A stretch of 32,000 nucleotides of DNA from Pseudomonadota bacterium (GCA_040754425.1 JBFMCR010000004.1:10898-42897), one strand, 5' to 3'. Positions 7,402 to 27,212 are shown, numbered from the stretch's first letter. Numbers and translations are program-made. Notes: a model not told the origin generated them from the letters alone.

Positions 7402-7465
7402 TTCACAAGGAGGACAAGAGGACAGGAGTAAGTCATTCCTCTTGTCCTCATGTCCACTTTGTTCG
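7402..7465. repeat. Hairpin repeat, family A copy 3 (best-formed)
   Basis: ACAAGGAGGACAAGAGGACAGGAG (left) matches the reverse complement of CTCTTGTCCTCATGTCCACTTTGT (right) at 20/24 positions. The loop is about 4 nt. The element fills the amgK-murU gap. Confidence 0.75.
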
Positions 7466-9493: not shown

Positions 9494-9750
9494 TGGGGAT
9501 TAACCGCGGAGTTCGCGGAGGACGCAGGGGAAAACCATTGACACAGAGGAAGCAGAGGCAACAGAGTGGGAAAACCGTTTGAACGAAGAGGACGGGAGCG
9601 AGGGCAATGAGTCTATTCCTCCCTGTAAAAGAATGAATTCCTCTGTTACCTCTGCTTCCTCTGTGTCCTATCCCATGCCTGAGAAAATCCGTGCCCTCCG
9701 CCATGAGCGTTTTGGTTTACCCTCTTGCCCTCCTGTCCTCTTTGTGAAGT
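9494..9750. repeat. Composite intergenic repeat region with interleaved arms of four hairpin families
   Basis: C-left ACCGCGGAGTTCGCGGAGG (9503-9521). D-left ACACAGAGGAAGCAGAGGCAACAGAG (9541-9566) pairs with D-right 9637-9666 at 25/26. A-left GAACGAAGAGGACGGGAGCGAGGGCAA (9581-9607) pairs with A-right CCCTCTTGCCCTCCTGTCCTCTTTGTG (9720-9746). A B-type right-arm fragment ATTCCTCCCTGT sits at 9615-9626. The direct repeat GGGAAAACC(A/G)TTTGA precedes both the D and A left arms. Confidence 0.75.
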
Positions 9751-12102: not shown

Positions 12103-12816
12103 ATGCGTCCAATTCATTTGTTCCTCTCGCTGTTCGTGCTCGCGAGCGCTTCCGTACAGGCAGGCGAGAAGGAAATCCGCCAGTCACTCCAGAAGAGCCT
12201 CACTGGCGCCGACATCACGTCCGTCAGCAAGACGCCATACGGCGGACTGTATGAAGTCGTGGTGGACGGGCAGGTGGCCTACGCGACTGCAGACGGCAAG
12301 TACCTGGTGCTGGGCGACGTCATCGACCTGTCCGGCAAGCGCAACATCACCGCCATGCGCAATGCCAAGCTGTCGGAGGTGAAATGGAGCAGCCTGCCGC
12401 TCGCCAACGCCATCAAGGAAGTCAAGGGCAACGGCAGCCGCAAGCTGGCGATCTTCTCGGATGCCGATTGCCCATACTGCCGCAAGCTGGAGCCGGAGCT
12501 GGAAAAGCTCGACAACGTGACGATCTATACCTTTCTTTACCCCATCGTAAACCTCCATCCCGATGCCGTGCCGACTTCGAAACAGATCTGGTGCGAGAAG
12601 GACCGGCTCAAGGCCTGGAAGGGCTACATGCTCAGGGGCGAGGAGCCCAAGTCCAGGGGCGATTGCCCCAACCCGGTCGACGCCACCGTAGAACTGGGCA
12701 CCAAGCTGCGCGTTTCGGGAACGCCCACTATCATCCTGGAAAACGGCCAGCGCATACCGGGCTATATCCCCGCCGACAAGCTCGACCAGATGATGAACGC
12801 GGCAAGCAGAAAGTGA
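12103..12816 (+). CDS. dsbC: Periplasmic thiol:disulfide interchange protein (DsbC/DsbG family)
   Basis: Signal peptide MRPIHLFLSLFVLASASVQA, an N-terminal dimerisation region, and a thioredoxin fold with the CPYC active site (FSDADCPYCRKLE). Confidence 0.85.
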   Translation: MRPIHLFLSLFVLASASVQAGEKEIRQSLQKSLTGADITSVSKTPYGGLYEVVVDGQVAYATADGKYLVLGDVIDLSGKRNITAMRNAKLSEVKWSSLPLANAIKEVKGNGSRKLAIFSDADCPYCRKLEPELEKLDNVTIYTFLYPIVNLHPDAVPTSKQIWCEKDRLKAWKGYMLRGEEPKSRGDCPNPVDATVELGTKLRVSGTPTIILENGQRIPGYIPADKLDQMMNAASRK

Positions 12817-12965
12817 GGAGAAACGGGGTCTGAGGAGAAACGGGGTCGGGCACCCCGTTCGCCGAAAATTTACCGCGGAGTCCGCAGAACGCGGAGTTTC
12901 CTGATGTACCCCTCCGCGTACTCCGCGGTTCGACCCGGACTGTCCGTCGGCGTCTGTCCGTCCGG
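12814..12965. repeat. Composite repeat region downstream of dsbC
   Basis: Perfect 17-nt tandem duplication TGAGGAGAAACGGGGTC x2 (12814-12830, 12831-12847); the first copy contains the dsbC stop codon. Hairpin AACGGGGT-cgggc-ACCCCGTT (12839-12859). Family C inverted repeat ACCGCGGAGT (12872-12881) / ACTCCGCGGT (12920-12929) with nested CGCGGAG/CTCCGCG. CTGTCCGTC x2 at 12940 and 12954. Confidence 0.75.
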
Positions 12966-13734: not shown

Positions 13735-14979
13735 CTATTTGCGGGCCAGCGGCCGTGCGCGGTAGTCCCTGGGCAGCAGCACCCACATGCGGCCTTGCTG
13801 CTTCATCCTGCCGGCCAGCTCGCCGGCCGCTGCGCCAAAGCCCCAGTAGAAGTCGGCCCGCACGGCGCCGCGGATGGCGCCGCCGGTGTCCTGTGCCATC
13901 ATCAGGCGGTTGAGCGGCCGTGCGGAATTGGGCCAAGTGGTGGAGAGGAAGACCGGCGCGCCCAGCGGGATGTATTTCGGGTCTACGGCAATGGAACGCC
14001 CGGCGGTGAGCGGCACGCCCAACGCGCCCAGCGGCCCGGAAAGACCATCGGGCAGTTCGCGGAAGAACACGTAGCTCGGGTTGCTGTTCAGCAGTTCCGG
14101 GAGCTTGTCCGGATTGGCTTCGGCCCAGGCCTTGATGCCTTGCATGGAAGCCTCCTCCAGCTTCAGTTCGCCGCGCTCGACCAGCAGCTTGCCGATGGAT
14201 TTGTAGGGATGGCCGTTCTGGTCGGCATAGCCGATGCGCATGTGGGTGCCATCCGGCAGCTCGATGCGGCCCGAGCCCTGGATTTGCAGGAAGAAGAGAT
14301 CCACCGGGTCTTCCGCCCAGGCGATGGGCTTGCCGCGGAATGCGCCGTTGGCGTCGCTGATTTCGCTGCGCGTGGCATAAGGCACCACCCGGTTGCCCTG
14401 CAGGCGGCCTCTGAGGCGCAGGTTTTTGAGTTCCGGGTACACTTCGGCCAGGTCGACCACGATGAGGTCGGCGGGCGCGGCATAAATCGGGTAGCGGGCC
14501 TTCTCGGTGCGCTTGCGGTCTCCCTTGATGAGCGGCTCGTAATAGCCGGTGACCATGCCCTCCGCCGTGCCGTCCGGGTTGAAGACTTCATGCGGCCGGA
14601 AGCGCTGCTCGAAAAACGCGCGCACGGCCGTCTCATCCGCGCCGCTCATGGCCTGCGCCTCGGTGCACACATCCTGCCAGGCCGGCTGGTTTTTCAGCGC
14701 GCCGCAGGATTGAAGAAATGCCGGCCAGGCCTCGGCCAGCGCATCCGCATTCCAGTTGGCGACGGCTTTCCATTCGACCGCGCGCAACTGCGCTGACGGA
14801 ATCGGGGTCGGCAGGGGCTGGGTGGGCGGCAGGGCGGGGGGTGGTACGGGAACCGGGGTTGGCACAACAACGGGCGGTTCCGGTTCCGGCCGCGGCTGCG
14901 GCGCACCACAGCCGGCCGTCAACAGCGCGGCGGCCAGGCTTGCGTAAAATGGATGGCGGGAAAACCCGAAACCTCTCAT
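13735..14979 (-). CDS. mltA: Membrane-bound lytic murein transglycosylase A
   Basis: 414 aa with lipobox LLTAGC, a Pro-rich linker, then MltA/3D-domain sequence (TGYYEP..., GTHMRIGYADQNGHPYKSIG..., AVDPKYIPLGAPVFL). Confidence 0.88.
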   Translation of the reverse strand: MRGFGFSRHPFYASLAAALLTAGCGAPQPRPEPEPPVVVPTPVPVPPPALPPTQPLPTPIPSAQLRAVEWKAVANWNADALAEAWPAFLQSCGALKNQPAWQDVCTEAQAMSGADETAVRAFFEQRFRPHEVFNPDGTAEGMVTGYYEPLIKGDRKRTEKARYPIYAAPADLIVVDLAEVYPELKNLRLRGRLQGNRVVPYATRSEISDANGAFRGKPIAWAEDPVDLFFLQIQGSGRIELPDGTHMRIGYADQNGHPYKSIGKLLVERGELKLEEASMQGIKAWAEANPDKLPELLNSNPSYVFFRELPDGLSGPLGALGVPLTAGRSIAVDPKYIPLGAPVFLSTTWPNSARPLNRLMMAQDTGGAIRGAVRADFYWGFGAAAGELAGRMKQQGRMWVLLPRDYRARPLARK

Positions 14980-14997
14980 GAACGAGGAGTATAAACC

Positions 14998-15087
14998 GTG
15001 GATCAGGGGAGTCTGTGGCTGTTGCTGGAAGCCGGCCTGGCGTTGGCGATTTTGCTGTTCATCGTGTGGTGGACGATGAAGAAGTGA
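14998..15087 (+). CDS. Putative 29-aa single-TM small protein (GTG start)
   Basis: GAGGAG SD (14984-14989) lies 8 nt before GTG 14998. The peptide is (M)DQGSLWLLLEAGLALAILLFIVWWTMKK, one hydrophobic helix with a KK tail, and stop TGA 15085-15087 abuts repeat E1. It is too short for the ORF track and I recognise no homolog. Confidence 0.3.
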   Translation: MDQGSLWLLLEAGLALAILLFIVWWTMKK

Positions 15088-15290
15088 GGGTTCAGGGTTC
15101 AGGATTCGGGATTCAGGGTACAGGATTCAGGGTACAGGATTCGGGATTCGGGATTCAGGATTCAGGATTCAGGATTCAGGATTCAGGGTTTGAGCTTCGC
15201 GCCTTGATTTGAAGTTTGCGGCCTCTGGCCGCACTTCCCTGTACCCTGTACCCTGTACCCTGTACCCTGAATCCTGAACCCTGAACCCTG
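15088..15290. repeat. Heptamer-array/core element, family E copy 1
   Basis: 14 in-phase tandem heptamers (GGGTTCA, GGATTC[A/G], GGGTACA; 15088-15185). Core GGGTTTGAGCTTCGCGCCTTGATTTGAAGTTTGCGGCCTCTGGCCGCACTTCC (15186-15236). About 7.5 complementary heptamers follow (CCCTGTA x4, CCCTGAA, TCCTGAA...; 15237-15290). The element fills the whole gap between two convergent stop codons. Confidence 0.9.
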
Positions 15291-15292
15291 GC

Positions 15293-15676
15293 TCAATGCA
15301 ATACCCGCGGCATGGATAGGGTGAATTCCGGAATCTCGGTGTCGAATTTCCGGCCGTCTTCCGCCACCATCTGGTAGCTGCCGCGCATGGTGCCCACCGG
15401 GGTGCCGAGCGAAGTGCCGCTGGTGTACTCGAAGCTTTCGCCCGGACGCAGGAAGGGTTGCTCGCCCACCACGCCCAGGCCGCGCACTTCCTGTACCTGA
15501 TTTTTGGCATCGGTGATGATCCAGTGACGCGAAATGAGCTGCGCCGAGGCCGTGCCCTCGTTGGCGATGGTGACGGTGTAGGCGAACACGTAGCGGTCGC
15601 TGCCGGGGTCGCTCTGTTCCGGCACATAGGCCGTGCGCACGCTGACCCGGATGTCGTATTTCTTGCTTTCTGCCAT
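15293..15676 (-). CDS. apaG: ApaG (DUF525) protein
   Basis: MAESKKYDIRVSVRTAYVPEQSDPGSDRYVFAYTVTIANEG...SRHWIITDA...GVVGEQP.L.PGESFEYTSG, canonical ApaG. ATG 15676 was chosen within ORF 15293-15733. Confidence 0.9.
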   Translation of the reverse strand: MAESKKYDIRVSVRTAYVPEQSDPGSDRYVFAYTVTIANEGTASAQLISRHWIITDAKNQVQEVRGLGVVGEQPFLRPGESFEYTSGTSLGTPVGTMRGSYQMVAEDGRKFDTEIPEFTLSMPRVLH

Positions 15677-15754
15677 AAAAATTTCCTGACGCCTTAAGTC
15701 CCGCCATTGTATCCAAAGCGCGGGACGGACCAACCAATCCCTGAAAAAGCCATT

Positions 15755-15834
15755 GACAGGCAGATAAGTGAGGTAAGGGAGGATTGTTTATCGATAAGGC
15801 CGGCTCCCTGAACCTCCCGTTCCTCCCTGTGAAG
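15755..15834. repeat. Hairpin repeat, family B copy 1 (no cargo)
   Basis: Left arm GACAGGCAGATAAGTGAGGTAAGGGAGG and right arm CTCCCTGAACCTCCCGTTCCTCCCTGTGAAG. The right arm shares the 22-nt block AACCTCCCGTTCCTCCCTGTGA with copy B2. Confidence 0.75.
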
Positions 15835-15892
15835 CATTTTCAGAGTCTCCCTGGGTTAAAATCCGGGTTTGCAAAATTTACCGGAGCAAGTC

Positions 15893-16576
15893 ATGGCTTA
15901 CCGCATCGCCCCTTCCATCCTGTCGGCCAACTTCGCCAAGCTGGGCGAGGAAGTGGACAACGTTCTCGCCGCCGGCGCGGATATCGTCCACTTCGACGTC
16001 ATGGACAACCATTACGTGCCCAACCTCACCATCGGCCCGCTGGTTTGCGAGGCGCTGAGGAAGCACGGCGTCACCGCGCCCATCGACGTGCACCTCATGG
16101 TCAAGCCGGTGGACCGCATCATTCCCGACTTCGCCAAGGCCGGTGCCACCTACATCACCTTCCACCCGGAAGCGTCCGAGCACATCGACCGCACCATCGG
16201 ACTCATCCGCGAGAGCGGCTGCAGGCCCGGCCTGGTGTTCAACCCCGCCACCCCGCTCGACGTGCTGGAGTACACCCTGGACAAGATCGACATGGTGCTC
16301 TTGATGAGCGTCAACCCCGGCTTCGGCGGCCAGAAGTTCATCCCCTACGTGCTCGACAAGGCGAAGAAAGTGCGCAGGATGATCGACGAGCGCGGCCTTG
16401 ACGTCAGTCTCGAAATCGATGGCGGCGTGGGCCCTGCCAACATCGCCGAAGTCGCCCGCGCCGGCGTGGACACCTTCGTCGCCGGCTCCGCCGTGTTTGG
16501 CGCCGGCAAGGACAGCGATCCGCACCGCTACGACAGCGTCATCGCCGCCATGCGCGCCGAACTTGCCAAGGTTTGA
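15893..16576 (+). CDS. rpe: Ribulose-phosphate 3-epimerase
   Basis: [21 protein letters not shown]...[14 protein letters not shown]...HLMV...[13 protein letters not shown]...DGGV, canonical Rpe. Confidence 0.93.
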
Positions 16577-16580
16577 TTTT

Positions 16581-16660
16581 GACAACAGGGAGGTTAAGAG
16601 AGGTAAGAGAGGAAAAACTCAAAAGCCATACTCCCTTAACCTCCCGTTCCTCCCTGTGAG
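16581..16660. repeat. Hairpin repeat, family B copy 2 (no cargo)
   Basis: Left arm GACAACAGGGAGGTTAAGAGAGGTAAGAGAGG and right arm CTCCCTTAACCTCCCGTTCCTCCCTGTGAG. It fills the rpe-gph gap and ends 4 nt before the gph ATG. Confidence 0.8.
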
Positions 16661-16664
16661 AATC

Positions 16665-17348
16665 ATGAATTTCCCGATCGATATCAAAGCCGTCGTCATC
16701 GACCTCGACGGCACCCTGCTGGACACTGCGCCCGATCTCGCGCGCGCGGCCGAATTGATGATGAACGAGCTGGGCATGCCCTGTCCGTCGCTCGACACCA
16801 TTCGCACCTACATCGGCAACGGCGTGTCGCGCCTGGTCAAGCGCGTGCTCACCGGCGACATGGATGCCGAGCCGGACGCCGGACTGTTCGCCCGTGCGCT
16901 GCCCATCTTCCAGAAGCATTACGGCGAGCACGTTTCCGAACGGTCGCGGCCTTTTCCGGGCGTGGTGGAAGGCCTGGAGGCTTTCAGGAAGATGGGCCTG
17001 CGCATCGCCTGCATCACCAACAAGGCCGAGCAGTTCACCCATCCGCTGCTGAAGGACACGGGGCTGTTCGGTTACTTCGATCTGATCCTGTCCGGCGACA
17101 CGCTGCCAAAGCGCAAGCCCGATCCGCTGCCGCTGCAACATGCCTGCAAGGTGTTCGGCGTGCAGCCGCGCGAGCTTTTGCTGATCGGCGATTCATGGAA
17201 CGACACCCAGGCCGCGCGCGCCGCCGGCTGCCCGGTATTCTGCGTGCCCTACGGCTACAACCGCGGCCGACCGGTGCAGGAGCTCGATGCGGACGCGCTG
17301 GTGCCGAGCCTGGCCGAAGCCGCGCAACTGCTCAAGAAGGCGGCATGA
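16665..17348 (+). CDS. gph: Phosphoglycolate phosphatase (HAD superfamily)
   Basis: MNFPIDIKAVVIDLDGTLLDT (DxDGT motif I), ...ITNK..., ...KPDP..., GDSWNDTQAARAAG (motif IV). The rpe-gph-trpE order is conserved in beta- and gammaproteobacteria. Confidence 0.88.
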   Translation: MNFPIDIKAVVIDLDGTLLDTAPDLARAAELMMNELGMPCPSLDTIRTYIGNGVSRLVKRVLTGDMDAEPDAGLFARALPIFQKHYGEHVSERSRPFPGVVEGLEAFRKMGLRIACITNKAEQFTHPLLKDTGLFGYFDLILSGDTLPKRKPDPLPLQHACKVFGVQPRELLLIGDSWNDTQAARAAGCPVFCVPYGYNRGRPVQELDADALVPSLAEAAQLLKKAA

Positions 17349-17361
17349 TTCTCGGGGGCCA

Positions 17362-17475
17362 GGATTCAGGATTCAGGATTCAGGGTTTGAACTTCGCGCC
17401 TTGATTTGAAGTTTGCGGCCTCTGGCCGCACTTCCCTGTACCCTGTACCCTGAATCCTGACCCCTGACCCCTGAA
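17362..17475. repeat. Heptamer-array/core element, family E copy 2
   Basis: GGATTCA x3, then core GGGTTTGAACTTCGCGCCTTGATTTGAAGTTTGCGGCCTCTGGCCGCACTTCC (1 mismatch to E1), then 6 complementary heptamers (CCCTGTA x2, CCCTGAA, TCCTGAC, CCCTGAC, CCCTGAA). It ends 1 nt before the trpE ATG. Confidence 0.9.
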
Positions 17476-17476
17476 A

Positions 17477-18943
17477 ATGACTGAAACCGAATTCAACGAC
17501 CTTGCCCGCCACGGCTACAACCGCATCCCGCTTACGCTGGAGATGCCGGCCGACCTCGACACGCCGCTCGCGCTCTACCTCAAGCTTGCCAACGCCCCCT
17601 ATAGCTGCCTGCTGGAATCGGTGGTGGGCGGCGAGCGCTTCGGCCGCTATTCCATCATCGGCCTGCCGGCGCGCACACTGATCCGTGTGCGCCATCACAC
17701 CCTGACCGTGGAGCAGGACGGCGAGATCATGGAGGAATACGAGACCGCCGATCCGCTGGCGTTCATCGAGCAATACCTCGTCCGTTTCAAGGCCGCGCCG
17801 CTCGCGGGCGGCCCGCGCTTTGCCGGCGGGCTGGCCGGCTATTTCGGCTACGACACCATCCGCTACATCGAAAAGCGCCTGGCCAAAGATTTTGATAAGG
17901 CCCGGCCCAGGAAGCCCGACGAAATCAACGCGCCGGACATTCTGCTCATGCTCACCGACGAACTCGCGGTGGTGGACAACCTCTCCGGGCGGCTCACCCT
18001 CATCGTCTATACCGACCCCATGCAGCCCGGCGCCTATGAGGCGTCGCTCGCGCGCCTGAACGCCCACCGCGAGCGGCTGCAATCGCCGCTGACGCCTCCG
18101 AAAGCGCAGGCGGTTGCCGAAGCCGAGGCGGTGTCCGAATTCGGCGAAGACGCCTTCAAGGCCGCCGTGCTCAAGGCCAAGCAGTACATCCGTGACGGCG
18201 ACATCATGCAGGTGGTGTTGTCCCAGCGCATGCGCCGGCCGTTCGCGGCGAGCCCGTTGACACTCTACCGCGCCCTGCGCTCGCTCAACCCCTCGCCCTA
18301 CATGTTCTATTACGACATGGGCAACCACCACGTGGTCGGCTCCTCGCCCGAGATCCTGGTGCGGCGCGAAGGCGACACCGTCACCGTGCGGCCGATCGCC
18401 GGCACGCGACCGCGCGGCCGTGACCGCGAGCACGACCTCGCCCTGGAAAAGGAATTGCTGGCCGACCCCAAGGAATGCGCCGAGCATTTGCAACTGCTGG
18501 ACCTCGGCCGCAACGATCTCGGCCGCGTGGCCCGGATTGGTTCGGTCAGGGTCACAGAGAACATGAGCATAGAGCGCTATTCGCACGTCATGCACATCGT
18601 CTCCAACGTCGAAGGCAGGCTCAGGCCGGGCTTGAGTTCCATGGACGTGCTGCGCGCCACCTTCCCCGCCGGCACCGTGTCCGGCGCGCCCAAGGTGCGC
18701 GCCATGGAAATCATCGACGAACTGGAACCCGTAAAGCGCGGCATCTACGCCGGCGCGGTCGGCTACCTGGGCTTCGACGGCGACATGGATCTCGCCATCG
18801 CCATCCGCACCGCGGTGGTCAAGGACGGCACCCTGTACGTGCAGGCCGGCGCCGGCATCGTCGCCGACTCGGTGCCGGAAAACGAATGGGAAGAAACCCG
18901 CAACAAGGCGCGCGCCGTGGTGCGCGCGGCGGAGTTGTCATAG
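17477..18943 (+). CDS. trpE: Anthranilate synthase component I
   Basis: 488 aa with GYNRIPL...[13 protein letters not shown]-terminus, LESV Trp-feedback motif, and the chorismate-binding core ([25 protein letters not shown]...AGAGIVADS). Confidence 0.95.
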
Positions 18944-19113
18944 GGTACAGGGTACAGGGTACAGGGTTTGAGCTTCGCGCCTTGATTTGAAATTAATTTG
19001 AGAACTTGCCGCCTCTGACCGCACCTCCCCCGAATCCCGAATCCCGAACCCTGAATCCTGAATCCTGAACCCTGTACCCCGAATCCTGAACCCTGTACCC
19101 CGAATCCCGACCC
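18943..19113. repeat. Heptamer-array/core element, family E copy 3
   Basis: GGGTACA x3, then a core carrying a 13-nt internal insertion (…TTGATTTGAAattaatttgagaaCTTGCCGCCTCTGACCGCACCTCCC), then 12 complementary heptamers (TCCCGAA, CCCTGAA, TCCTGAA, CCCTGTA variants). It spans exactly from the trpE stop to the stop of the convergent regulator gene. Confidence 0.88.
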
Positions 19114-20421
<1,308 letters not shown>

Positions 20422-25924: not shown

Positions 25925-26361
25925 ACAGGGAGGTAAGGGAGGGAATGGAGGAAAGCCTTCGTTATCTGGGCGAACAAATCATCGGTGCCGCGATGCGGGT
26001 GCATACGGCTCTTGGCCCCGGCATGCTGGAGAGTGCATACGAAGTCTGTCTGCACCATGAATTATCCAAATCCGGACTGCGTGTGGCACGTCAAGTCGAT
26101 TTGCCCATCGAATACGACGGGTTGAAAATGGATTCCGGCTATCGGCTTGATCTGGTAGTGGATGACTGTGTGGTGCTTGAATTGAAGGCAGTGGATAAGC
26201 TCACTCCCCTGCATACAGCTCAGTTGATAAGCTATTTAAGGCTTGGGCAGTACCCTGTTGGATATTTGCTCAACTTCAACGTCGTTCACATGAGGGATGG
26301 TATTCGGCGAATCTTGAACAAGCATTTGAATTAACCTCCCGCGCCTCCCATTCCTCCCTGT
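25925..26361 (+). mobile_element. 437-bp inverted-repeat-bounded cassette carrying the GxxExxY gene (family B copy 3, cargo-bearing)
   Basis: Arms ACAGGGAGGTAAGGGAGGGAATGGAGG (25925-25951) and CCTCCCGCGCCTCCCATTCCTCCCTGT (26335-26361) are 21/27 complementary. The ORF start and stop codons lie inside the arms. GC is lower than in the flanks. The same arm types occur without cargo at 15755-15834 and 16581-16660. Mobility is inferred, not shown. Confidence 0.45.
25945..26334 (+). CDS. GxxExxY protein (PD-(D/E)XK nuclease-like, PDDEXK_3 type)
   Basis: 129 aa with a GMLESAY motif near the N-terminus and D...ELK ([16 protein letters not shown]) as in PD-(D/E)XK folds. A/T-ending codons (TTA, AAA, TAT, ATT) are unlike the neighbouring trp genes. 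Confidence 0.85.
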
Positions 26362-26372
26362 TAATAAGAGTT

Positions 26373-27212
26373 ATGTCCGACATTCTCAATAAAATCCTCG
26401 CCACCAAGCGCGAGGAGATCGAAGCCGGCCTGAAAGAGGTCTCGCTTGCAAAAATGCAGGCGCTTGCCAAGGCGCAGCCGCCTGCGCGCGATTTCGTCGG
26501 CGCCATTCGCGCCAAAATCGCCGCCGGCAAGCCGGCCGTCATCGCCGAAATCAAGAAGGCCAGCCCCAGCAAAGGCGTACTGCGTGAGGATTTTCGGCCG
26601 GCCGAAATCGCCAAGAGCTACGAGGCGGGCGGTGCTGCCTGTTTGTCAGTGCTCACTGATAAACAATATTTCCAGGGCAGCGCCGAATACCTCCAGCAGG
26701 CGCGCGCAGCCTGTTCGCTGCCGGTGCTGCGCAAAGACTTCATCATCGACCCCTACCAGGTCTATGAAGCCCGTGCCATGGGCGCGGACTGCATCCTGTT
26801 AATCGTGGCGGCGTTTTCGCTCCCCTCTCCCCAGGGGAGAGGGGCTGGGGGTGAGGGCGCGGTGTTTGATATCCCCACCATGCGCGCACTTGAAGCCCTG
26901 GCTTTCGAGCTGGGCATGGCCGTGCTGGTGGAGTCCCACAACGCCGAAGAACTCGACGCCGCGCTACAGTTGAAAACCCCGCTGCAGGGCATCAACAACC
27001 GCAACTTGCGTACCTTTGAGGTCAGCCTCGATATCACGCTGGGACTTTTGCCCAAAATTGGTGCCAATCGCATTGTCATTACCGAGTCGGGCATTCTTGC
27101 ACCGGCCGATGTGGCTCGCATGCGCGCCCATGACGTCCAGGCCTTTCTGGTCGGTGAGGCTTTTATGCGCGCCGACAACCCTGGAGAAGCGCTAACGTGG
27201 CTTTTCGCCTAA
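26373..27212 (+). CDS. trpC: Indole-3-glycerol-phosphate synthase (with an 18-aa in-frame insertion)
   Basis: 279 aa with [38 protein letters not shown] and ESGI motifs. The extra segment [18 protein letters not shown] is absent from E. coli TrpC at the aligned position. Confidence 0.92.
26814..26867. repeat. GC-rich palindromic (REP-like) repeat inserted in frame within trpC
   Basis: CCCCTCTCCCC-a-GGGGAGAGGGG is a perfect 11-bp stem (26822-26844), followed by GCTGGGGGTGAGGG. It is flanked by the imperfect direct repeat GCGGCGTTT (26808-26816) / GCGGTGTTT (26859-26867). The length is 54 nt, i.e. 18 codons. Confidence 0.65.

Follow-up and report, generated by a model that had tools for sequence, protein, structure and literature searches.

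A stretch of 32,000 nt from a Pseudomonadota bacterium (GCA_040754425.1 JBFMCR010000004.1:10898-42897), here called the window, contains three short intergenic elements, E1 (15088-15290), E2 (17362-17475) and E3 (18943-19113), in each of which a centre, or core, of 48-61 nt lies between inverted arrays of G-rich heptamers. It is rather probable that these are lineage-restricted palindromic spacer elements that are prone to slippage. Judged by their sequence they are of the same kind as the GGGAATC-type inverted repeat pairs of Xanthomonas, and the architecture, which an earlier sequence-only reading of the window had taken to be novel, has thus already been published as convergent pairs of G-rich heptamer arrays (PMC4692102). 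The window has a GC content of 62% and comes from a Thiobacillus-like betaproteobacterium, the nearest public relative being Thiobacillus sp. UBA2186, with a top TrpE match that is 92% identical. Nine related lineages were obtained via TrpE homologues, and the loci that were compared are referred to by L-numbers.

The core is most easily followed through the 19-mer CTTCGCGCCTTGATTTGAA, which occurs three times in the window (at 15195, 17392 and 18973), always on the plus strand, against a chance expectation of 0.02. Heptamer arrays of this type were detected by Tandem Repeats Finder (TRF) at only three sites within the 32 kb, and in all three elements the units of the right arm are the complements of those of the left arm. 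The left arm of E1 (15088-15188) starts right after the TGA of a small open reading frame (ORF) and splits into 14.3 in-phase G-rich heptamers (GGGTTCA, GGATTCG, GGATTCA and GGGTACA), TRF giving 14.4 copies at 15087-15187; its core (15189-15236, plus strand) has two predicted hairpins, GAGCTTCG..TGAAGTTT and GCGGCC-TCT-GGCCGC at 15218-15232, and its right arm (15237-15290) consists of 7.7 C-rich heptamers (CCCTGTA x4, CCCTGAA, TCCTGAA and others), ending 2 nt before the apaG stop codon. E2 begins 13 nt past the gph stop with a left arm of GGATTCA x3 plus GGG (17362-17385; 3.6 copies at 17360-17384 by TRF), followed by a core (17386-17433, plus strand) which differs from that of E1 by one substitution (G to A) and retains the GCGGCC-TCT-GGCCGC hairpin at 17415-17429, and by a right arm of 6 C-rich heptamers (17434-17475) that ends 1 nt before the trpE ATG at 17477. 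In E3 the left arm, (GGGTACA)3GGG (18943-18966; 3.7 copies at 18942-18967 by TRF), overlaps the final base of TAG, the stop codon of trpE, the core (18967-19027, plus strand) is longer and diverged, with an extra TTAATTTGAGAAC and both hairpins disrupted, and the right arm (19028-19113), with about 12 C-rich heptamers (CCCCGAA, TCCCGAA, CCCTGAA, CCCTGTA and others; 11.7 copies at 19029-19110 by TRF), ends at the stop codon of a sigma-54 regulator (19114). The distance from arm to arm is therefore 48 nt in E1, 48 nt in E2 and 61 nt in E3. Each element occupies a complete intergenic gap, from a stop codon to the next stop or start codon, and its distance from stop codons is in every case 0-13 nt. 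Between the entire E2 (17360-17475, 116 nt) and the inner part of E1, at 15163-15278, the identity is 94%. CRISPR was considered as a label for the arrays and rejected, the units being of 7 nt and spacers lacking.

The three cores are not equally close to one another. The core of E3 differs from that of E1 by 4 substitutions and an indel of 12-13 nt, and the extra TTTGAGAAC that it carries is also found in a diverged copy of the core in another species (L011). Because the L011 copy contains it too, a deletion in E1 and E2 is likelier than an insertion in E3, and the long, E3-like form of the core is probably the ancestral one. The sequence-only reading had counted 3 substitutions in E3 and taken the extra nucleotides for an internal insertion, and on both points it needs revision; its three copies of a core between inverted complementary heptamer arrays and its unit counts agree with the 19-mer search and with TRF.

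As RNA, E1 and E2 are predicted to form long hairpins from either strand. The folding energy of E1 is -130.6 kcal/mol (z about -11), and that of E2 is -68.1 kcal/mol (z -8.8) on the plus strand and -74.2 kcal/mol (z -9.1) on the minus strand; E3 folds less strongly, at -51.2 kcal/mol (z -4.4, dinucleotide shuffles). The very long hairpin that had been proposed from the sequence is thus borne out, more weakly for E3. The stem proposed within the core, GAGCUUCG/UGAAGUUU, is likewise present in the predicted folds, with a G:U pair in E1 that becomes A:U in E2. The core of E3 folded alone gives a z of only -0.2, with GCCGCC..GACCGC unpaired. A promoter scan found no sigma-70-like promoter at E1-E3 and a terminator scan found no intrinsic terminator there, the core hairpin being followed by ACTTCCC. 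A search of Rfam gave no match at the gathering threshold, as the supposed novelty required, and the E-value mode returned only far-sub-threshold matches to miRNA precursors, which are generic hairpins.

The occurrence of the core beyond the window was assessed by scanning for the 19-mer in GTDB genomes that represent 185,579 species, one per species, and in JGI metagenome contigs. Of the species representatives Thiobacillus sp. UBA2186 alone has it, in the three spacers orthologous to those of the window, the remaining four matches being chance matches without an element, and the scan of the metagenome contigs yielded two chance matches only. An nhmmer profile built from seven cores found no further copies in about 230 kb of related loci. 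One further, diverged copy was recognised in L011, which belongs to a third species, at the E2 site and in reverse orientation (shuffle p<0.003). When E2 was compared by blastn with plasmids and phages the core was absent, and the matches were confined to single heptamer arrays from unrelated bacteria; single, non-inverted arrays on plasmids, with units identical to those of E1-E3, are (GGATTCA)7 at 247-296 of L020 (Nostoc), (CCCTGTA)5 at 238-275 of L019 (Erwinia) and (CCCTGAC)5 at 251-296 of L018 (Pantoea). Since the scans found only the orthologous sites of the sister species and the one diverged copy in L011, the core is a low-copy, lineage-restricted sequence and not a dispersed family. 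The sequence-only reading had looked to such a family, and had held that the case would be undermined if the three copies were the only ones, which is largely what was found.

In the sister species (L009, L010 and L004/L005) E1, E2 and E3 are all present, and the three assemblies are identical to one another. None of the three sites has the same numbers of units (left/right) in the window as in the sister species, these being 14/7.5 against about 3.5/5 in E1, 3.6/6 against 4/7 in E2 and 3.7/12 against about 5.7/7 in E3, and these interspecies differences at the same sites support the earlier suggestion that slippage lies behind the variation in unit number. The core of E1 in the sister species is inverted relative to the same flanking genes, as is the related core that L011 carries at its E2 site, so that the common orientation of the cores holds within the window and is not a fixed property of the elements. 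L013 has an empty E3 site, its two stop codons being 4 nt apart, and comparison of the filled E3 of the window with this empty site revealed neither a target-site duplication nor sharp element ends; the ends of the elements are ragged and differ between copies. The E1 site of L013 carries a minimal version that consists of two heptamers and a small GC hairpin, and the E1 or E3 sites of other lineages contain classical REP-like palindromes or simple hairpins. The REP-like palindromes (GTAGGAGC.., GTGGGAGCGGCGCCCCCGCCGCGAT) were seen at 7863-7956 of L011, 11450-11531 of L016, 11450-11662 of L017 and 18150-18857 of L014, the last with a Y1_Tnp (IS200/RAYT-like) gene nearby.

The cores of the window and L009 are 95-98% identical, compared with about 77% identity at fourfold-degenerate sites. 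Alignment of 14900-19400 of the window with 7500-11900 of L009 revealed a mosaic in which identity varies from 0.65 to 1.00 per 60 nt and in which stretches of 98-100% (for instance 15920-16340 and 16520-16700) adjoin others of 65-80%. The pattern points to homologous recombination between the lineage of the window and the sister species as a frequent event. The cores sit within tracts of locally high identity, where neighbouring coding stretches are equally conserved, and because the locus is a recombination mosaic the high identity of the cores cannot be read as selection.

The spacer between gph and trpE, which E2 fills in the window, has a different content in several relatives. In L013, L015 and L016 (9909-10000 in each) and in L022 (3909-4000) the equivalent of 17349-17476 of the window is about 92 nt long and contains a conserved short ORF that ends in Arg-Trp-Trp, Arg-Trp-Trp-Trp or Arg-Trp, as in ATG CGA GGC GCC GTG AAA AAT TTC CGA TGG TGG AAC TGA, together with nested stems and a T-run. 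From these sequence features it is probably a trp leader peptide and attenuator; Rfam contained no matching model for it. An inverted-heptamer hairpin stands at this position instead in the window and in five other lineages, which fall into three groups with units of their own: GGATTCA in the window and L009, GGGGCTA/GGAGCTA in L011, L014 and L021, and GCGAGGC in L017. On a rough tree of protein sequences, lineages with the attenuator and lineages with the hairpin are intermingled, and there have therefore been either two or three independent replacements or recombination. The left-arm unit of L017, GCGAGGC, agrees with the local text ATGCGAGGCGCC of L015, its sister with the attenuator, and the centres of L014 and L021 keep GCGATGGTGA, which resembles CGATGGTGG of the leader; together these suggest that stem sequences already present at a site can give rise to arrays in situ. 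Homology of the core in the window to the trp leader was tried as a candidate and set aside, the two sharing only CGATGG, by way of intermediates, and the likeness, not significant by shuffling, being a hint only. The conserved ATG of trpE (17462-17479 of the window, and the equivalent in all relatives) is without a recognisable Shine-Dalgarno sequence in hairpin-bearing and leader-bearing lineages alike.

Comparative anatomy is consistent with a mechanism in several steps. The arms would grow and shrink in steps of 7 nt by replication slippage, and template switching or recombination between the inverted arms would keep them complementary and could at times flip the centre. Like arrays at neighbouring spacers may then provide the homology for copying of a whole arm-core-arm segment from one spacer to another, and it is for this reason, under the proposal, that E2 over its whole length matches the inner E1. 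To judge from folding, a transcript of either strand would form a very stable stem-loop starting at the stop codon, which between genes might be a barrier at 3' ends, a site of processing or a leaky terminator, and not an RNA or protein gene. Between gph and trpE, E2 would take the place held in related lineages by the trp leader peptide and attenuator. A number of points weigh against this account of E1-E3. The arms of E3 pair less well than those of the others (z -4.4 with dinucleotide and -1.9 with mononucleotide shuffles) and both of its core hairpins are lost; E1-E3 are without a U-tract and are therefore not canonical intrinsic terminators; and the near-identity of the cores between species could reflect selection on the core sequence, which slippage and copying do not require. 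The role at the level of RNA is one that we infer from predicted structures, and the copying between spacers by gene conversion is likewise a proposal drawn from the sequence comparison.

Hairpins of the same build are not confined to the three sites. About a dozen other spacers of the window have them, with purine-rich 8-9-mer arms, and the spacer between rpe and gph carries a strong hairpin in 10 of 10 lineages (z -3.6 to -9.5), with at least five arm types according to lineage; gph starts a few nt past the right arm of a hairpin and has at most a weak Shine-Dalgarno sequence. Hairpins without a gene were noted in the window at 1668-1740, 2760-2815, 7403-7462, 9502-9747 (nested), 12870-12935, 15770-15832 and 16585-16657, the left arm of each being made of purine-rich, Shine-Dalgarno-like 8-9-mers and the right arm of the complementary sequence, often with ends of the form ACAG..CTGT or ..CTTTGT. 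Their build is that of a set of nuclease cassettes. Between trpD and trpC (25927-26363) a GxxExxY/PDDEXK_3 nuclease gene (25945-26334) is bracketed by inverted purine-rich arrays, ACAGGGAGGTAAGGGAGG .. CCTCCCATTCCTCCCTGT, and has equivalents at 18463-18882 of L009, 18313-18732 of L013, 13463-13861 and 11500-11833 of L014, and 13097-13477 of L015. The arm units differ among these relatives (ACAGAGG, GGACAGGAG and CGCGGAG types), and the proteins are only 62-70% identical, compared with about 90% for the flanking genes. Two unrelated contigs from a viral collection (L023 and L026) also have inverted arrays around such nuclease genes. A heptamer-armed nuclease cassette was found in none of the fetched loci, and a search of viral contigs for one gave nothing with a single protein and, with an alignment, seven loci with other arm types. 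Within trpC (26373-27212) there is an in-frame palindromic insertion, CTCCCCTCTCCCC/AGGGGAGAGGGGCTGGGGGTGAGGG, at about 26818-26870, and at the same codon position in relatives an in-frame DUF559 (Vsr-like) nuclease ORF with the same flanking repeats (L009 18891-20237, L014 13894-15339 and L017 19787-21175); three other relatives have neither the insertion nor the ORF. An inverted heptamer pair of another type was seen between a tonB-like gene and mltA in L009 (6193-6326), with the AT-rich unit (GGCAAAA)10, a short centre and then TTTTGAA/TTTTGCC.

These cassettes bear on an alternative in which E1-E3 are non-autonomous mobile elements similar to MITEs (miniature transposable elements with inverted repeats), their arms being terminal inverted repeats and their movement provided in trans, for instance by a small PD-(D/E)XK nuclease. 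The close match of the whole E2 to the inner part of E1, the filled and empty sites among close relatives and the recurrence of an arm type within a genome (type A three times in the window, GGTGAGC arms at two spacers in L022) would all follow from mobility, and the GxxExxY genes, bracketed by analogous inverted oligomer arrays with cargo-less versions nearby, and so bracketed in the unrelated contigs L023 and L026 as well, would supply a candidate partner. We nevertheless consider this unlikely, as the ends are ragged and of variable length with no target-site duplication, the three copies all lie within 4 kb and the core is absent elsewhere in the species representatives and metagenome contigs, no gene-carrying heptamer-armed cassette was seen among the fetched loci, the window has no transposase and the arrays show signs of an origin in situ. 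A broader possibility, to which we would also give little credence, is that relatives of Thiobacillus harbour an undescribed superfamily of palindromic cassettes, with lineage-specific 7-9-mer arms and, where there is cargo, with GxxExxY (between trpD and trpC) or DUF559 (inside trpC) nucleases, and that E1-E3 are its branch with heptamer arms and no cargo; such cassettes would move or convert between spacers, would have colonised nearly every gap of the cluster and would have displaced the trp attenuator independently on at least two or three occasions.

The remaining explanations look to the nucleic acid itself. One is that the arrays are G-quadruplex (G4) or i-motif elements, in DNA or RNA, with an influence on transcription, replication or recombination, and that the hairpin is a by-product; canonical (G3N1-7)4 motifs do occur in three of the six arms (E3 left on the plus strand, E1 right at 15244-15267 and E3 right on the minus strand), and the heptamers of Xanthomonas and Nostoc form G4 in vitro with a preference for four units (PMC4692102). 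The left arm of E2 (GGATTCA x3) and most of that of E1 carry GG tracts and not GGG, however, the duplex or hairpin should outcompete G4 because a complementary arm lies within about 50-65 nt, and even for the published repeats no biological function has been found (PMC4692102), so that this explanation appears quite improbable. It is very improbable that the core functions as a structured RNA or as a signal for regulation in cis, such as a small RNA or a protein-binding site, for which the arrays are packaging. The excess of core identity over that at fourfold-degenerate sites would accord with such a function, as would the G:U to A:U change in one stem and, in the GC hairpin, a single compensatory change between GCCGCC/GGCGGC of L011 and GCGGCC/GGCCGC of E1 and E2, with GCCGCC/GACCGC of E3 as an unpaired intermediate; yet E3 is equally well conserved though both its hairpins are lost, the orientation flips between species, no promoter, terminator or Rfam match was found, neighbouring coding stretches of the mosaic are as conserved and the taxonomic range is very narrow. 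The suggestion of the sequence-only reading that the arrays halt translation from either direction can be given almost no weight. Every frame of E1 and E2, on either strand, does contain a stop codon, as does every plus-strand frame of E3, but on the minus strand of E3 a stop is present in one frame only; such a barrier would in any case be redundant, because each flanking gene has its own stop at the edge of the element, and all-frame stops are an automatic property of any period-7 repeat that contains TGA or TCA.

The genes around the elements are arranged in the order mltA (minus), a conserved 28-aa hydrophobic ORF (plus), apaG (minus), rpe, gph, trpE and a sigma-54 regulator (minus). The small ORF (15003-15087, plus strand), whose stop codon abuts E1, has a counterpart called as a gene of 29 aa at the corresponding position of L009 and L015, and apaG (DUF525; 15293-15676, minus strand) is convergent on E1. 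Upstream of E2 is gph (16665-17348, plus strand, stop at 17346-17348), which encodes a phosphoglycolate phosphatase-like HAD hydrolase, and trpE (17477-18943, plus strand), for anthranilate synthase component I (PF04715 and PF00425 of Pfam in homologues), is flanked by E2 and E3. The gene for the sigma-54-dependent transcriptional regulator (19114-20421, minus strand) is convergent on E3. No transposase, recombinase or RAYT (Y1_Tnp) genes were found among the ORFs of the 32-kb window. Elsewhere in the window (12814-12847) a perfect 17-nt direct duplication, TGAGGAGAAACGGGGTC x2, directly follows the dsbC stop codon and is itself followed by a complementary stem, GGGCACCCCGTT.

With E1-E3 a poorly understood class that had been published for Xanthomonas, the inverted pairs of G-rich heptamers, is extended to a sulfur oxidiser among the betaproteobacteria, with detail beyond the original description in that a centre is common to the copies and flips between species, that sites are empty in close relatives and that arrays may grow in situ. 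There is also some practical value, of a moderate degree: such elements break assemblies, mimic regulatory hairpins and confound the annotation of operons. We judge the side context, namely the trp leader site, the hairpins with other units and the PD-(D/E)XK genes, to be more interesting than E1-E3 themselves; were the exchange of attenuators for hairpins and the nuclease cassettes to belong to one system, that system would be a selfish cassette of a new type, one that rewires how operons are regulated.

A variety of known systems offer points of comparison. With REP, BIME and REPIN sequences E1-E3 share the character of short palindromic intergenic repeats that form hairpins in the 3' regions of mRNA, but they have no GTAG-type head, there is no RAYT gene in the window and they are built of variable tandem heptamers rather than a fixed palindrome of 20-40 nt. 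They resemble MITEs, such as the Correia elements of Neisseria, in being small and intergenic, with inverted ends and hairpin RNA, and in being present or absent between relatives, and differ from them in the lack of a target-site duplication and of fixed termini, in their very low copy number and in having no known transposase partner. An inverton might be suggested by the change in core orientation between species, yet no sigma-70-like promoter was found at the elements and no recombinase gene in the window. Template switching between the arms of inverted repeats is reported to make the arms alike and to invert the spacer (PMC8604942), and the quasipalindrome and inverted-repeat processes (PMC8604942, PMC7202029) would fit the flipped cores and the retained complementarity of the arms; this is a mutational process and not an element family, and recombination between arms or independent insertion would give the same pattern in E1-E3. 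The short tandemly repeated repetitive sequences of cyanobacteria (GGGGA(C/T)T in Nostoc) and the TAACTGA repeats of the Beggiatoaceae are, like the arms of E1-E3, intergenic tandem heptamers of variable copy number (PMC4692102; PMC4679880). They differ in being mostly single direct arrays with no shared core, inverted pairs being few in Nostoc (PMC4692102) and no more than one indirect repeat having been reported in the Beggiatoaceae (PMC4679880).

The closest comparison is with Xanthomonas, each genome of which, according to Rehm et al. 2015 (PLoS One), has about 185 repeats of G-rich heptamers; GGGAATC is the predominant unit, and GGGATTC occurs as a variant (PMC4692102). The convergent inverted pairs number 70-75, with arrays that are 21-67 nt apart and mostly four units per arm, and the arrays lie 3-30 nt from stop codons, also inside operons (between groES and groEL, atpA and atpG, and atpD and atpC); the number of units differs between species while the repeat type is preserved, and no biological function has been identified for these repeats (PMC4692102). 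E1-E3 differ from these pairs in their host, a betaproteobacterium of the Thiobacillus clade, in their mixed units (GGATTCA, GGGTACA, GGGTTCA and GGATTCG), in their very unequal arms (14 against 7.5, and 3 against 12, rather than mostly four units) and in the near-identical centre common to three neighbouring elements, conservation of the spacer being no topic of the paper of Rehm et al. The likenesses extend from sequence to setting. E1-E3 too are tandem G-tract heptamers (GGGTTCA and GGGTACA, with GGATTCG equal to GGGATTC in register), though many units have GG only, and they form convergent arrays on opposite strands, 48, 48 and 61 nt apart, which are intergenic and close to stop codons. 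They share the potential for both G4 and stem-loop formation, are found within operons as well as between convergent genes and, as the comparison of the window with L009 indicates, vary in unit number while type and site are kept.

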